From the IMG/VR virus record IMGVR_UViG_3300029318_000065, positions 1-30,498 of that record: DNA of 30,498 bases. The stretch is one strand, 5' to 3'. A program made the position numbers and the translations under genes. Below, piece by piece: positions 15,242 to 25,182 of this stretch; the stretch's first letter is position 1, and every line of letters starts with the position of its first letter. The notes below the pieces were generated by a model. It saw only the letters and a list, made by a program, of their open reading frames with translations, ran no database searches and was not told where the DNA came from. This DNA comes from a virus. Its lineage: Duplodnaviria; Caudoviricetes.

Positions 15242-16636
15242 ATGTCTTTAAATCAACTTCAGGAGAAGTGGGCACCCGTTCTGAATCACGACAGTCTCCC
15301 CGAGATCGAAGATTCCCATAAGCGCGGCGTCGTTGCACAACTCCTCGAAAACCAAGAAAAAGCACTTGTCGAAGAAGGTCAAATCCTTTCTGAGACTCTT
15401 CAAACCGCTGGTACAGGTGGTTTCGGTGGTTCCGCTACCGCAACTGGTCCTGTTGCTGGTTTTGACCCTGTTCTGATTTCTCTGATCAGACGCTCTATGC
15501 CTCAGCTTATCGCTTATGATATTGCTGGCGTACAACCGATGACTGGTCCTACTGGACTGATCTTCGCGATGAGAACACAATACGGTACTGAGAGAGATCC
15601 TTCCAGTTCCGATTACAGAGAAGCATTCTTCAACGAGCCTAACGCAGGTTTCTCTGGTGCTGATGGTAACCGTCTTGCTGACTACGATCCGACTGCATCC
15701 AGTTCTGCTGTTAACGACGCTGAAGGCGCTAACCCTGGTCTTCTTAATGATTCCCCTGCTGGAACATATGAGTTGACAGGTGATGCTCAAGGAATGAACA
15801 CCACTGCTCTTGAAGCAATTACAGATGCTGCTGCAGCAACTGCTTTCAGAGAAATGGGCTTCTCGATCGAGAAGGTTACTGTTACTGCCAAGGCTCGCGC
15901 TTTGAAAGCAGAATACAGTATTGAACTTGCTCAAGACCTGAAGGCAATTCATGGTTTAGATGCTGAGCAGGAACTCGCTAACATCCTTAGCACTGAGATC
16001 CTTGCTGAGATCAACCGTGAAGTTGTTAGAACCATCTACACAAACGCTGTTGCTGGTGCTCAAAACAACACTGCTAACGCTGGTATCTTCGACCTCGACG
16101 TTGACTCCAACGGTCGCTGGTCTGTTGAGAAGTTCAAAGGTCTTCTGTTCCAGATCGAAAGAGACGCTAACGCAATCGGTCATCAGACTCGTCGCGGGAA
16201 GGGCAACATCCTGATCGCTTCTGCTGATGTTGTATCTGCCCTCGGCATGGCTGGCGTTCTTGACTACGCTCCTGCTCTCCAAGGTAACAACGGTCTTGTC
16301 CCTGATGACAACTCCTCTACTCTGGTTGGTACACTGAACGGTCGCATCAAGGTCTACGTTGATCCTTATTCTGCTAACGTTGCTGACAAGCACTACTACG
16401 TTGCTGGTTATAAGGGTACTTCTCCTTATGACGCTGGTCTGTTCTATTGCCCTTACGTTCCTCTTCAGCAGGTTCGTGCAATCAACCCTGACACCTTCCA
16501 GCCCAAGATTGGCTTCAAGACTCGCTACGGCATGGTCTCGAACCCCTTCGCTCAAGGTCTGACTCAAGGTTCTGGTGCTCTGACTGCTAATACTAACAAG
16601 TATTACAGAAGAGTTCAGGTTGCTAACCTTATGTGA
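15242..16636 (+). CDS. g23: major capsid protein (gp23)
   Basis: LLENQE, LIRRSMPQLIAYDIAGVQPMTGPTGLIFAMR, RALKAEYSIELAQDLKAIHGLDAE, FYCPYVPL, FKTRYG. Confidence 0.98.
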   Translation: MSLNQLQEKWAPVLNHDSLPEIEDSHKRGVVAQLLENQEKALVEEGQILSETLQTAGTGGFGGSATATGPVAGFDPVLISLIRRSMPQLIAYDIAGVQPMTGPTGLIFAMRTQYGTERDPSSSDYREAFFNEPNAGFSGADGNRLADYDPTASSSAVNDAEGANPGLLNDSPAGTYELTGDAQGMNTTALEAITDAAAATAFREMGFSIEKVTVTAKARALKAEYSIELAQDLKAIHGLDAEQELANILSTEILAEINREVVRTIYTNAVAGAQNNTANAGIFDLDVDSNGRWSVEKFKGLLFQIERDANAIGHQTRRGKGNILIASADVVSALGMAGVLDYAPALQGNNGLVPDDNSSTLVGTLNGRIKVYVDPYSANVADKHYYVAGYKGTSPYDAGLFYCPYVPLQQVRAINPDTFQPKIGFKTRYGMVSNPFAQGLTQGSGALTANTNKYYRRVQVANLM

Positions 16637-16655
16637 TCTAATCACAACTAATTTT

Positions 16656-16684
16656 AAGAGGGTGCTTGACACCCTCTTTTTTTA
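16656..16684 (+). terminator. rho-independent terminator of g23
   Basis: AAGAGGGTG-CTTGA-CACCCTCTT followed by a T tract. Confidence 0.88.
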
Positions 16685-16693
16685 TGCTATAAT
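16666..16693 (+). promoter_or_regulatory. sigma70-type promoter embedded in the g23 terminator
   Basis: Exact TTGACA (16666-16671), 16-nt spacer, TG-n-TATAAT (16688-16693); predicted start near 16700. Confidence 0.8.
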
Positions 16694-16699
16694 TTATTT

Positions 16700-16892
16700 G
16701 TAAGGAAGGGACGCCTGACTTACGGGAGTGACTGAATAAACTTACTGGCAACTGCTGGTTAAGGTGATGAGACAGGGGTGGTGCCCGCTACTGGGAACAG
16801 TAGAATCGAAAACCAATCGGGTCTCAGGCAACAACGTTTTTACTTCTGTAGTAATGCCCGTTGTTTGTTGGTATACAGGAACCCAACCTCCC
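16700..16892 (+). ncRNA. structured non-coding RNA, manA RNA motif-like
   Basis: No credible ORF. Helices: GUAAG/CUUAC 5' hairpin; closing GGGAG(16724)/CUCCC(16888); UGAGAC(16768)/GUCUCA(16821); CUACUG-GGAA-CAGUAG GNRA hairpin; ACAACG/CGUUGU; GUUGG/CCAAC; complementary loops UGGU(16779)/ACCA(16812). The structure is seen in the sequence; the manA name is from recall. Confidence 0.72.
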
Positions 16893-16908
16893 ACACACAC
16901 CACACAAG

Positions 16909-16972
16909 ATAAATAGACGTGTATCGTCGCCCTGAGGGAAGTCTGGTCAGAATCAGACACTCCCTCTTTTTT
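16909..16972 (+). ncRNA. candidate small late RNA / extended terminator hairpin
   Basis: ATAAATA (16909-16915), short leader GACGTGTATCGTCGCCCT, hairpin GAGGGA-A-GTCTGGT-CAGA-ATCAGAC-AC-TCCCTC, then T6. Confidence 0.45.
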
Positions 16973-17052
16973 ATTGTAATGTATCTTAGTATACTAAAAA
17001 TAAGAGTTGTTTCTAGGAATAAAGTACCTATCGATTTTGTTAGGGTTTCCTG

Positions 17053-17059
17053 TTAAATA
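17053..17059 (+). promoter_or_regulatory. late promoter
   Basis: TTAAATA upstream of the GAGGTG RBS at about 17075 and of the 17136 ORF. Confidence 0.55.
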
Positions 17060-17135
17060 GTAGTAGAATTAAGAGAGGTGGAAAAATGAACCCTAACCAT
17101 ACTTTTGTTATGGCAAAAAGTTCAAAGGTGAGACC

Positions 17136-17312
17136 ATGCACAACATTACAAGCCGCAATCAGTTAGACGAGTGGAGACACTTTGAAGACACCATCGATCA
17201 CATCTCAGTCGAAGAACAAAAGTTGAGTGACTACTACGAGTGTATAATTGAGTGCGAAATCACACATGACAAGTCATGTAAGTCCATTTGCAAAGAGATA
17301 CTTATGACCTAA
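17136..17312 (+). CDS. small twin-CxxxC protein (58 aa, not in ORF track)
   Basis: MHNITSRNQLDEWRHFEDTIDHISVEEQKLSDYYECIIECEITHDKSCKSICKEILMT; AGGTG RBS; followed by a terminator. Confidence 0.8.
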   Translation: MHNITSRNQLDEWRHFEDTIDHISVEEQKLSDYYECIIECEITHDKSCKSICKEILMT

Positions 17313-17338
17313 ATAGATATTCCGTGTGAAGGAAGTGG

Positions 17339-17364
17339 AGGAGAGCAGAAATGCTCTCCTTTTT
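17339..17364 (+). terminator. rho-independent terminator
   Basis: AGGAGAGCA-GAAA-TGCTCTCCT-TTTT. Confidence 0.88.
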
Positions 17365-17368
17365 AATG

Positions 17369-17375
17369 CTAAATA
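17369..17375 (+). promoter_or_regulatory. late promoter
   Basis: CTAAATA just after the terminator, upstream of the run of genes containing g3. Confidence 0.65.
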
Positions 17376-17400
17376 ATTTTATAACTCTGACATCTATATC

Positions 17401-17595
17401 ATGGATTATAAACCATATTCTCCAGAGTGGCATCGAAAAAGGTATCTAGAAGAAGCAATCTTTAAATACCTTGACGACTATGTTGCGAACGATATCATTA
17501 TAAATGATATTAAAGATATTCTTCACAGTAGATCTGATGAGGCATATCAAGAGTATATCAAACTCAACGATTTAGAATCCAAACTCACTTCTTGA
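17401..17595 (+). CDS. hypothetical protein
   Basis: 64-aa ORF (YKPYSPEWHRKRYL) after a late promoter. Confidence 0.7.
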   Translation: MDYKPYSPEWHRKRYLEEAIFKYLDDYVANDIIINDIKDILHSRSDEAYQEYIKLNDLESKLTS

Positions 17596-17601
17596 TCACA
17601 C

Positions 17602-17913
17602 ATGCTATCAACGCAATACCGCCTTCGTCTGGAGGGCATATGTCAACGTATCGCCAACAATGAAGAAGTACCTCTCTCAGATATGATCTGGGCAGAGAAA
17701 CTAGCGAAATCATACACCACTGCCCGTGAATGGTTAAAACAAGCAAGACGCCAATCTAAAGGGATTGAGGAGGGCAGTGTAGATGATTTTATGAATAGGA
17801 TGGGTTTGGGAGATCCTGATCCATCCAACCATAAAACAAGATTTGAAGGTGCCGATGAAATTGTAGATTGGTTCCAAAGAGACAAACCTGACGACTGGAG
17901 ACAGCGCGACTAA
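17602..17913 (+). CDS. conserved hypothetical protein
   Basis: 103-aa ORF MLSTQYRLRLEGIC...DMIWAEKLAK...MGLGDPDPSNH...DWRQRD; stop abuts the g3 start. Confidence 0.8.
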   Translation: MLSTQYRLRLEGICQRIANNEEVPLSDMIWAEKLAKSYTTAREWLKQARRQSKGIEEGSVDDFMNRMGLGDPDPSNHKTRFEGADEIVDWFQRDKPDDWRQRD

Positions 17914-21708: not shown

Positions 21709-22179
21709 ATGAAAGTGACTCCAAAAAAGCGACAGCACTATGTAGATAACCAAGAATTTCTTGCTGCTATCATCAAATACAAAGAGAAAGTTGATTATGC
21801 GAAAGAACATGATCTGCCGAAACCTCGTGTCAATAATTACATTGGTGGTTGCTTTTTGAAGATCGCTACACATTTATCATACAGACCAAACTTCATCAAC
21901 TACATGTATAAAGATGATATGGTTTGTGATGGTATTGAGAATTGTATTCAATATATTGATAACTTCGATCCTGCCAAGAGTAGAAATCCCTTTGCATATT
22001 TTACTCAGATTGTATACTACGCATTCTTGAGAAGGATCGCAAAAGAAAAGAGACAGATGGATATCAAAGATAAAATTTTAGAGAAGTCAGGCTACGATCA
22101 TGTGTTTAGTGTTGACGGAGACGCCAGTTCAGAGTATAATCAAATTAAGTCCCGTGTCGAAATGAATTCTAAACGATGA
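21709..22179 (+). CDS. g55: late transcription sigma factor (gp55)
   Basis: HYVDN.EF, YIG.CFLKIA.HLS.RPNFINY, DGIENC..Y..NFDP.KS.NPFAYFTQI.YYAFLRRI.KEK. Confidence 0.96.
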   Translation: MKVTPKKRQHYVDNQEFLAAIIKYKEKVDYAKEHDLPKPRVNNYIGGCFLKIATHLSYRPNFINYMYKDDMVCDGIENCIQYIDNFDPAKSRNPFAYFTQIVYYAFLRRIAKEKRQMDIKDKILEKSGYDHVFSVDGDASSEYNQIKSRVEMNSKR

Positions 22180-23210
22180 AGATCCTGCTGATTACTGATC
22201 AACACTTCGGAGTTCGCAACGACAATCAACATTTCATCAATCATTATAAAAAGTTTTACAATAATATTGTAATTCCTTTCATCAAAGCGTCTGGTATTAA
22301 ACAGATTATTTGTTTGGGTGATACTTTTGATCGTCGTAGAGCAATTAACTTTATGTCTCTTAATGAGGCAAAGGAAATGTGGTTTGATCCATTGAGAGAT
22401 ATGGGCATTCCAATGACTATGCTTGTAGGTAACCATGACATCTACTACAAAAACACTCTACGAGTTAATGCCCCAAATGAACTCCTTCGGGGGTACGACA
22501 ACATCGATATCATTGATGACTGCGCTACCGTTGATTTTGACGGTCTTTCTGTTCTTCTTTTGTCTTGGATATGTGATGACAACCGAGAGCGATTCCTCAA
22601 GGTTATTCAGGAAACTGATGCTGATGTTTGTATGGGTCACCTTGAGCTTAACGGTTTTGAAGCACATCCTGGTCATGTAATGGAAGGTGGGATGGATCCG
22701 AACATATTCAAAAAATTCAAACGAGTATTTTCGGGACACTATCACCAGAAATCTACTAAAGGAAATATTAGATATCTGGGTAACCCTTATCAACTTTATT
22801 GGAATGACTATGCCTCGAAGAGGGGATTTCACGTCTTTGATACAGATACTCTTAAGACTACTTTTTATCGGAATCCCTTTGATGTTTTCTATAAACTTTA
22901 TTATAATGCTGGAGTTACTATCCCAGACGAATCCGAAGTCAGAGGATCCTTCGTCAAACTAATCGTAGAGGATAAAGGTGATTATTCTAAGTTTGATTAC
23001 ACTGTAAAAGTCTTGCAAGACATGGGTTGTGCAGACTTAAAAATTGTAGAAGATCTTAGTGTAGCACTAGAAAACGGTACTGAAGTAGTGGAGACCGAAG
23101 ATACAATGACATTGCTTGACAAATATATAGATGATATAGAGATGAAAGTCAACAAATCTAATATCAAATCTGTCATGCGGTCGTTGTATACAGAGGCATC
23201 TGCACTATAA
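22176..23210 (+). CDS. g47: recombination endonuclease subunit gp47 (Mre11/SbcD-like)
   Basis: Metallophosphoesterase motifs TDQHFG, LGDTFD, GNHD, GHLE, SGHYH. Confidence 0.95.
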   Translation: MKILLITDQHFGVRNDNQHFINHYKKFYNNIVIPFIKASGIKQIICLGDTFDRRRAINFMSLNEAKEMWFDPLRDMGIPMTMLVGNHDIYYKNTLRVNAPNELLRGYDNIDIIDDCATVDFDGLSVLLLSWICDDNRERFLKVIQETDADVCMGHLELNGFEAHPGHVMEGGMDPNIFKKFKRVFSGHYHQKSTKGNIRYLGNPYQLYWNDYASKRGFHVFDTDTLKTTFYRNPFDVFYKLYYNAGVTIPDESEVRGSFVKLIVEDKGDYSKFDYTVKVLQDMGCADLKIVEDLSVALENGTEVVETEDTMTLLDKYIDDIEMKVNKSNIKSVMRSLYTEASAL

Positions 23211-23464
23211 TGTTTATTCTTACCGATAAAAAAACTGGTGGTGTCTATGCCACCAAAAACAAAACTGGTAAAGTCGTACAAGTTTTTGAAGACGAAGACG
23301 ATGCTACTAGATATATGATTCTTCTGGAAGCAGAAGAGTATTCAGAAGAATTAGAAATTATGGAAGTGGATACAGAACTTGTCGCTATGAATTGTGACAG
23401 TTATGGGTATTCTTATGCTATAGTAGAACCAACTGACTTGCTTATCCCTAGACTTGATACATGA
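23210..23464 (+). CDS. DUF3110-like hypothetical protein
   Basis: GVYA...V..FEDEDDATRY..LLEA...C...GY resembles cyanobacterial DUF3110 (recall). Confidence 0.65.
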   Translation: MFILTDKKTGGVYATKNKTGKVVQVFEDEDDATRYMILLEAEEYSEELEIMEVDTELVAMNCDSYGYSYAIVEPTDLLIPRLDT

Positions 23465-25182
23465 TTGTTTTTGAAAATATCAAGTGGAAGAACTTTCTCT
23501 CCACTGGTGACCAATGGACAGAGATTAATCTCAGTGAGAGTCCATCGACTCTTATTGTTGGTGCTAATGGTGCAGGCAAGTCTACACTCCTAGATGCTTT
23601 GTGCTTTGCTCTCTTTAACAAACCATTTAGAAAAATTAGTAGAGGGCAACTAGTAAACAGTATTAATGAAAAAGGACTCAAGGTTGAAGTATGCTTTAGT
23701 ATTGGGCGGGATGAGTATCGTGTCTTTCGCGGAGCGAAGCCTAATATCTTTGAGGTATACAAAAACAATAAAATGGTTGACCAAGATGCTGCTGCCAGAG
23801 ACACGCAGAAGTATCTCGAACAATCAGTTCTCAAACTCAATTACAAATCATTCACACAAGTTGTCATCTTGGGTTCATCCACATTTGTCCCCTTCATGCA
23901 ACTTACCGCACCTCACCGACGAGAAGTTATTGAAGATCTACTTGACATCAACATCTTCTCGCACATGAATACAATCCTGAAGGATCGTGTTCGCAATGCT
24001 ATGACTCAAAGTCGTGATTGTGATCATCTCCTTCATATTGCAGAGGAGCGTGTAAATAATCAAGAAAGAATTATCAATACTCTTACTGAAGTAAATCAAA
24101 ATCGTCAAGAAGAAAAGAAAAATACTCTGACGAATAATAAGAAAAAAATTGAAACAGAACAGAAAGCACACGAGAAACTAAAAGAAGAAGTTGATAGTCT
24201 TAACGTACAGTTTGATGGTGTAGAGGAACATAAAGAAGTATTGGATAGTCTTCGACAAAAACAATCTGATTGTAATTCGGAACTTAAATCTACTGCGAAA
24301 GAATTGAAATTCTTTAAGACGCATGATGAGTGTCCTACTTGCTCTCAGCAAATTGAGAAAGCATTTCAAAATGCAATGATCGGTAATCTTGAAACTAGGG
24401 GTAAGAATCTCACTAAAGAATTTAAAGGACTCACTAATCAGATTGCTGATGCAGTTGGTATTATTGAGAAGATGGAAGATATTTCAAGGAAGGCAGTTGA
24501 AACTCGTAGTAGAATCTCTGCATCTGAAAGAGAGATTGTACGTCTTGAGATGGAAAATTTGCAGATCAATAAAGAGTTGATTGAGTTGCAAACAAATACT
24601 CCTAACATTACAAGTGAAAAAGAATCGCTAGTCAAATTTCAAAAAGAACTGGAGGTAACTCAAAAAGATTGTGGCAAGATTAGTCAATCTCTTGATGAGT
24701 TTAAAGTTGTTAGTAGTCTTCTGAAAGACTCTGGTATCAAAAGTCAAATTATCAAAAAATATGTCCCTATCTTTAATAATCTAATCAATAAATATCTGCA
24801 CAGTATGGACTTCTTTGTCAACTTCACACTTGATGAAGAATTCAAAGAAGTTATCAAGAGCAGATTCCGAGATGAATTTTCATACTCATCTTTCTCTGAA
24901 GGTGAAAAGCAAAAGATTGACCTTGCTCTACTGTTCACATGGCGTGAAGTTGCTCGTATGAAGAATAGTGTTGCAACTAATCTTCTAATCCTTGATGAAG
25001 TTTTTGATAGTTCTTTGGATACTGAAGGTACAAATGAACTCTTGAAGATTCTTCGTTCACTGGGTAATACAACCAACGTATTTGTGATATCTCATAAAGG
25101 TGAAATTCTCGTAGATAAGTTTCTGCGAACGGTAAAATTTGAAAAGATAAATGATTTCTCGAAAATGTCAGACGATTCGTAA
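23461..25182 (+). CDS. g46: recombination endonuclease subunit gp46 (Rad50/SbcC-like)
   Basis: KNFLS, Walker A GANGAGKST, zinc hook CPTC, signature FSEGEK, Walker B LILDEVFD, ISH. Confidence 0.97.
   Translation: MIVFENIKWKNFLSTGDQWTEINLSESPSTLIVGANGAGKSTLLDALCFALFNKPFRKISRGQLVNSINEKGLKVEVCFSIGRDEYRVFRGAKPNIFEVYKNNKMVDQDAAARDTQKYLEQSVLKLNYKSFTQVVILGSSTFVPFMQLTAPHRREVIEDLLDINIFSHMNTILKDRVRNAMTQSRDCDHLLHIAEERVNNQERIINTLTEVNQNRQEEKKNTLTNNKKKIETEQKAHEKLKEEVDSLNVQFDGVEEHKEVLDSLRQKQSDCNSELKSTAKELKFFKTHDECPTCSQQIEKAFQNAMIGNLETRGKNLTKEFKGLTNQIADAVGIIEKMEDISRKAVETRSRISASEREIVRLEMENLQINKELIELQTNTPNITSEKESLVKFQKELEVTQKDCGKISQSLDEFKVVSSLLKDSGIKSQIIKKYVPIFNNLINKYLHSMDFFVNFTLDEEFKEVIKSRFRDEFSYSSFSEGEKQKIDLALLFTWREVARMKNSVATNLLILDEVFDSSLDTEGTNELLKILRSLGNTTNVFVISHKGEILVDKFLRTVKFEKINDFSKMSDDS

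Follow-up and report, generated by a model that had tools for sequence, protein, structure and literature searches.

The region between the major capsid gene g23 and a small open reading frame (ORF) of a marine cyanobacterial virus holds the structured RNA manA, and raises the question of whether this RNA is a leader acting on the gene downstream or a separate RNA with a role of its own. manA has been without an assigned function since 2010. Weinberg et al. 2010 (PMC2864571) described it as a 5′ UTR element, proposed that it sits ahead of a metabolic gene, and graded it as cis-regulatory and a probable switch. The window referred to here is the whole stretch of DNA analyzed, 30,498 nt in length; coordinates are those of the window, and all features described are on the + strand. 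Sequence comparison places the source among marine cyanobacterial viruses and, at this locus, identifies an S-SSM5-like phage: positions 16640-17320 show 98.8% identity to Synechococcus phage S-SSM5.

The 5′ neighbor of manA is g23 (15242-16636; Pfam Gp23, E 4e-146), which is followed by an intrinsic terminator consisting of a 9-bp hairpin and a U-run (16656-16684). The 3′ neighbor is an ORF of 58 aa (17136-17312) that falls in phrog_665; it has no convincing match in Pfam, and no support was found for CP12 as a candidate. This ORF lies in a conserved leader segment (17020-17312) with its own promoter-like motifs, TAAATA at 17054-17059 and TAGAAT at 17064-17069. Within the leader, 17064-17135 contains a GAGGTGGAAAAATGA stretch that is strongly kept across four named phages, where GAGGTGGAAAAATGA constitutes a Shine-Dalgarno-like motif 5′ of a short upstream ORF (17086-17166). 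A GTA-N8-TAC sequence, which we take to be an NtcA box consensus, is found at 16981-16994, directly 3′ of the terminator that closes the manA unit; it is retained in Syn30, and no well-spaced -10 box was found near it. In phages Syn30, S-SM1 and Syn9, g23 is followed by a plain terminator and then by the same leader and ORF, without the manA cassette, and manA is absent anywhere in these three genomes. It is present in only one of five phage genomes tested, and a genome-wide check of Sf-FS3 also found none.

The earlier note on this DNA had proposed a manA-like structured RNA from the nucleotide sequence. Rfam identifies manA (RF01745) at 16704-16897, covering model positions 1-192 with 171.4 bits and an E value of 3e-46 (gathering cut-off 55.2), and this is the sole Rfam match within the window. 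The RNA (16700-16897) consists of a P1 hairpin (16700-16723), a closing stem formed by GGGAG 16724-16728 and CUCCC 16888-16892, and a multi-helix core; the closing stem is found where it had been proposed, as is the GNRA hairpin, which is the GGAA tetraloop (16794-16797) of P6 (16788-16803). The fold of 16700-16975 is steadier than chance (z -2.6).

Homologues were collected by means of an exact 18-nt core, with 119 viral loci listed of an estimated 760. All 20 of the viral core-matching loci scanned are manA. Ninety-six full-length distinct copies were obtained, the window included, and 52 were kept at less than 93% identity. In these 52 sequences, 96.1% of the cells pair and substitutions affect both partners in 24 of 54 pairs, with P1 uncounted and P5 partly misaligned; none of 500 shuffles reaches the observed values, and a slid control is far off as well. 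Covariation thus bears out the fold. Even between the window and S-SSM5, which differ by five substitutions in manA, two of the five form a single C-G to G-C swap (16832/16863), one converts A-U to G-U with the pair kept, and two are in unpaired positions. The unpaired segment 16733-16743 is conserved; conservation in the homologues is circular, since the set was chosen by the exact 18-nt core, and the segment is also conserved in the Rfam consensus. In cellular genomes, 14 of 32 loci with the core were scanned and three are real manA, probably from phage contigs present in bins. Glutamine riboswitch aptamers and tRNAs were also often observed close to manA, in a cluster with it (loci L016, L034, L057 and L346).

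A promoter specific to manA had been postulated, and a sigma-70-type host promoter that matches the consensus at 12 of 12 positions is found at 16666-16693. It has the form TTGACA-N16-(TG)TATAAT, with TTGACA at 16666-16671, a 16-nt spacer and TG-TATAAT with its hexamer at 16688-16693, and a predicted start at about 16700; it overlaps the g23 terminator hairpin. Promoters matching at least 10 of 12 positions are found upstream of 85 of the 96 manA homologues, vs. 61 of 2362 background windows, and eight of the 96 display a TTGACA..TATAAATA hybrid promoter. Terminator of g23 and promoter of manA thus make up one overlapping element (16656-16693) whose -35 box is inside the hairpin. Many other manA copies have this design upstream of them, and it is also seen in the late module described below, in its 3′ arm.

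Downstream of manA are a CA-rich spacer (16893-16908), unpaired in the constrained fold, and then a terminator made up of a hairpin (16934-16966) and a run of six U (16967-16972), with no credible ORF in between, as had been noted. The segment 16918-16972 folds at -19.2 kcal/mol; a simple terminator scan missed the hairpin, probably because of its internal loop. The proposed terminator does close the unit, but it belongs to a separate module with a late promoter motif and not to manA. It lies 78 nt after manA, and the first credible ORF, which has its own conserved leader, 244 nt after it. The placement ahead of a metabolic gene, within its 5′ UTR, is a proposed role outside the Rfam model and is not seen here. 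Since manA is preceded by a promoter of its own and followed by a terminator ahead of any ORF, and since relatives without manA keep the downstream leader and ORF, the anatomy supports a stand-alone unit at this locus.

The earlier inference that no ORF shares the manA transcript is supported at this locus and does not extend to the whole family. In 52 of 103 manA loci an ORF begins within 80 nt downstream, with no terminator or tRNA detected. A terminator was detected in 33 of the 103 (in 29 of them before the first ORF) by a detector that misses some, e.g., at L008, and a tRNA is found within 140 nt downstream in 12; at L346 a tRNA is directly 5′ of manA. As judged from these arrangements, free-standing manA is not the family rule. 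The neighbors are diverse: in 69 loci, 64 upstream ORFs represent 29 families and 67 downstream ORFs represent 23, some singletons of which may be spurious. The commonest downstream groups comprise 16 and 8 loci; from their N-termini we presume the former to be gp32-like and the latter transaldolase-like. A hairpin starting with GACCUAAGAUGCAAC, often with a U-run after it, is found 3′ of manA in 26 of the 103 loci, approximately 10-55 nt past manA (L011, L019, L041 and others), and had no Rfam match in the loci scanned.

Searches of the literature, largely outside subscription journals, turned up no account of manA being transcribed on its own. Assembled contigs from three RNA-library runs and one run of unrecorded type cover 16300-17700, and the three RNA-library runs display the same five manA alleles as the S-SSM5 record. 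The RNA-library contigs span the terminator, and contig-level data of this kind reveal neither ends, strand nor level. Depth is about 21,800-25,000 (25,000 may be a ceiling) in short contigs within manA, and averages 3,809 and 1,846 in downstream contigs of 21 kb and 11 kb, respectively; a short g23 contig has a depth of 24,133, and one RNA run is a single flat contig. Because each contig has a single flat depth value, and because DNA may be present, these values were not counted as evidence of expression.

The terminator of the manA unit is part of a second module (16923-16972) that consists of the conserved segment AUCGUCGCC at 16923-16931 followed by the hairpin and the U6 run. It is preceded by TAAATA (16910-16915), which we take to be a T4-type late promoter motif. 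The window hairpin is a diverged copy of a module whose tip reads CUGG-CAAAAU-CCAG, and it resembles elements in Sf-FS3 and Sf-CH11 that are located after other genes. A pattern built from the terminator was used to collect further copies, with 120 viral loci listed of an estimated 640; the manA core is in none of these 120, within flanks of up to 600 nt, some less. The module is supported by features that the pattern did not include. Of 93 distinct module copies, 81 have TAAATA no more than 25 nt upstream, mostly at a spacing of 6, 7 or 9 nt, vs. 76 of 3308 background windows, and a U5 run follows in 73 of 79 copies. Module hairpins fold at -19.8 kcal/mol with their own arms vs. -14.5 kcal/mol with swapped arms. 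Cells changed on both sides number 51 vs. 23 in shuffles, with a rough alignment of the basal stem, and pairs changed on both sides number 7 vs. 7.2, i.e., not above the shuffles.

By BLAST, the late module is found in 292 phage records, many of them near-identical isolates, at one site each; the window copy corresponds to the sole match in S-SSM5. It is near manA in just 3 of 92 sources, with the window copy itself part of the model, and S-SM1, Syn9 and Sf-FS3 carry it without manA. Most commonly it follows a gene that is presumably hsp20-like and is annotated hsp20 in Sf-FS3. There TAAATA overlaps the stop codon, and the TAAATA count may be inflated on account of this overlap; the motif nevertheless persists after other genes and in the window, where no credible gene ends. 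In Rfam, 16880-17140 of the window gave three sub-threshold snoRNA matches only at E up to 10, and 14 loci with canonical module copies gave none at E up to 0.5. No description of the module was found in Rfam 15 or in the literature searched, which lay largely outside subscription journals. In cellular genomes the pattern has 46 scattered matches, none from Synechococcus or Prochlorococcus by title, which are read as chance.

The simplest reading of the late module, and a likely one, is that it encodes a late RNA, predicted at about 50-55 nt, whose 5′ segment is exposed; a protein-binding terminator in 3′ UTRs is the rival reading. For AUCGUCGCC, no complement of at least 7 nt was found in three 16S rRNA copies taken from two picocyanobacterial assemblies, and no sense-strand target is shared across five phage genomes. 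Pairing of AUCGUCGCC with the manA P1 loop was considered and is unlikely as a general role, as S-SM1, Syn9 and Sf-FS3 have the module in genomes devoid of manA. The sequence GACG..CGUC at 16916-16928 can cover part of AUCGUCGCC in a read-through RNA but not in one started at the late promoter, and occurs in few copies. In addition, the motif ACUGGCA-N3-5-CYRGUU is common to manA P3 (16744-16760) and the late-module hairpin tip, being present in 35 of 52 manA and 46 of 79 module copies and partly fixed by the search pattern; this may be a common protein-binding hairpin, from which the module copy in the window has diverged.

What the manA RNA itself might do is suggested by its loops. The one kissing pair noted previously is present at its proposed positions: UGGU of L5 (16779-16782) is complementary to ACCA of L7 (16812-16815), within 16778-16816 and with P6 in between. 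It is invariant in all 52 homologues, so it yields no covariation signal. A second pair, additional to that one, is seen in the alignment of the 52 homologues within 16844-16882, where CUGUA of L8 (16846-16850) is complementary to UACAG of L9 (16874-16878). This pair is CUGU/ACAG in 43 homologues, AUGU/ACAU in eight and other in one; it is thus altered on both sides in eight of 52, and these eight rows may represent one inherited change. Both kissing pairs occur together in 0.065% of loop shuffles.

In a recent preprint (bioRxiv 10.64898/2026.07.01.735769), manA RNAs are shown by cryo-EM to assemble into rings of five, eight or ten molecules (pentamers, octamers and decamers) and into an icosahedral cage of 60 subunits. 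For the RNA that forms the 60-mer, kissing loops between molecules, L5-L7′ and L8-L9′, join the pentamer, and another variant uses L5-L7′ and L3-L8′ together with a contact of the L6 GNRA loop, L6-P6′. Here helices were counted from the 5′ end of the Rfam structure, and we infer the mapping to the preprint from its main text: UGGU/ACCA would be L5-L7′, CUGUA/UACAG would be L8-L9′ and the GGAA loop would be L6, and all three fit. The pseudoknot within one molecule that had been proposed is therefore, by analogy with these contacts, probably a contact between molecules.

The reading we favor, to which we give about an even chance, is that manA here is an early RNA of approximately 16700-16972 that assembles via the two loop pairs and acts as a multivalent protein scaffold. 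Host polymerase would start near 16700 early in infection, a timing inferred from the promoter consensus, and would stop near 16972, which would give a transcript of about 270 nt that may then be shortened to about 195 nt. The L5-L7′ and L8-L9′ contacts would join five molecules into a pentamer, and pentamers into decamers or a 60-mer. Such an assembly would present many copies of the unpaired segment 16733-16743 and thereby bind a host or phage protein; a trans-acting or protein-binding role is plausible. Its terminator would be borrowed from the independent late module, from which a separate RNA of about 55 nt is likely transcribed. Against the scaffold stand the 52 of 103 homologues that lead into an ORF, the use of L3-L8′ and L6-P6′ contacts by some manA variants, and the conditions under which cages are known: they were assembled in vitro with RNA at approximately 3 mg/mL and 10 mM Mg, and the main text of the preprint shows no assembly in cells (bioRxiv 10.64898/2026.07.01.735769).

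A less likely role for manA is that of a portable, promoter-proximal leader that stabilizes or localizes a transcript or is processed from it, and that at this locus heads a short non-coding RNA; the oligomers would then be a property of the test tube, or the contacts would form inside one molecule. The position directly behind a promoter in 85 of 96 copies, the varied neighbors, tRNAs included, and the fact that half of the copies form the 5′ portion of a longer transcript agree with a leader. However, the structure is under selection here although no ORF follows manA, and in the published structures the corresponding loops join separate molecules (bioRxiv 10.64898/2026.07.01.735769).

An unlikely explanation is the cis riboswitch or attenuator, in which 16724-16735 pairs with the 3′ arm of the terminator (16953-16964) and allows read-through into the ORF at 17136. 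The minimum-energy fold does contain this pairing, and the two folds lie within 1 kcal/mol of each other (-88 vs. -87); Weinberg et al. 2010 score manA in the same sense, and in 52 of 103 loci manA is directly 5′ of an ORF. Yet of 96 manA loci just three, all with the same module, can form a duplex of -14 kcal/mol or better, and on this lack of conservation the switch suggested by the fold was rejected. The same pairing is available where manA is not nearby, to 17 of 80 such module copies, including that of Sf-FS3 (-18.2 kcal/mol), the leader of the 17136 ORF is retained in relatives without manA, and the genes downstream of manA span 23 families. Moreover, the 3′ arm of a terminator emerges from the polymerase too late to block termination efficiently.

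That manA is a mobile, nearly neutral module, spreading with its promoter among intergenic sites of phages with little effect on infection, is very unlikely: it would explain the patchy distribution (one of five genomes tested) and the many insertion sites, but the covariation is strong, with a compensatory swap even between genomes 98.8% alike, and there is no linked mobility gene. Least probable, and rejected, is that the stretch encodes small proteins, as RefSeq has it with two hypothetical CDS in S-SSM5 and as a 49-aa ORF in the window might suggest, given that one S-SSM5-annotated frame is interrupted in the window by a stop at its fourth codon, the same ATG yields unconserved lengths of 7-100 aa in 93 homologues (24 of these at least 40 aa), and the 49-aa ORF across manA has no PHROG match; the CDS pair over manA and the late module in the S-SSM5 record (L120:2089-2416) is probably spurious.

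If the scaffold reading and that of the late module are both correct, a cyanophage would build protein-free RNA rings or capsid-like cages in its host from an early gene devoted to that RNA, and would also make, from the module directly behind it, a late RNA of about 55 nt acting via a 9-nt seed, single-copy in many T4-like cyanophages; this combined proposal is tentative. manA itself and its oligomers are already known, the cage, so far seen in vitro, being the first icosahedral one made by a natural RNA without protein (bioRxiv 10.64898/2026.07.01.735769). New are the late module, a widespread single-copy cyanophage element that is missing from Rfam and from the literature searched, and a clean natural test case: in S-SSM5, which is cultured on Synechococcus WH8102, manA is uncoupled from the downstream gene. 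With manA uncoupled, the phage in culture and relatives that lack the cassette at the same site, both the choice between regulator and free assembly and the presence of cages in cells become testable.

Bacterial trans-acting sRNAs, which begin with a seed and end at an intrinsic terminator, provide, along with T4 late promoters, a comparison for the late module, which similarly displays a promoter motif, a short conserved unpaired 5′ segment and a hairpin with a U-run. It differs from these sRNAs in that it has no Rfam family, a late phage promoter motif and a conserved hairpin tip, and no target was found for it. The manA copy shares with RF01745 the full-length match, all helices, the UGGU/ACCA pair and a T4-like cyanophage as host, and departs from manA as described in PMC2864571 by its terminator before any ORF and its location between g23 and an independent gene. 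Like ROOL and GOLLD, orphan RNAs that self-assemble without protein (PMC12286853), it may form protein-free assemblies; those RNAs, without an Rfam match in the window, differ by a length of several hundred nucleotides and by dihedral cages (bioRxiv 10.64898/2026.07.01.735769). A further likeness is to the manA oligomers and the 60-mer cage: the preprint structures are of other variants in vitro whereas this copy is known from its sequence, and, under the helix numbering adopted, both loop pairs and the L6 GNRA loop would be intact here.
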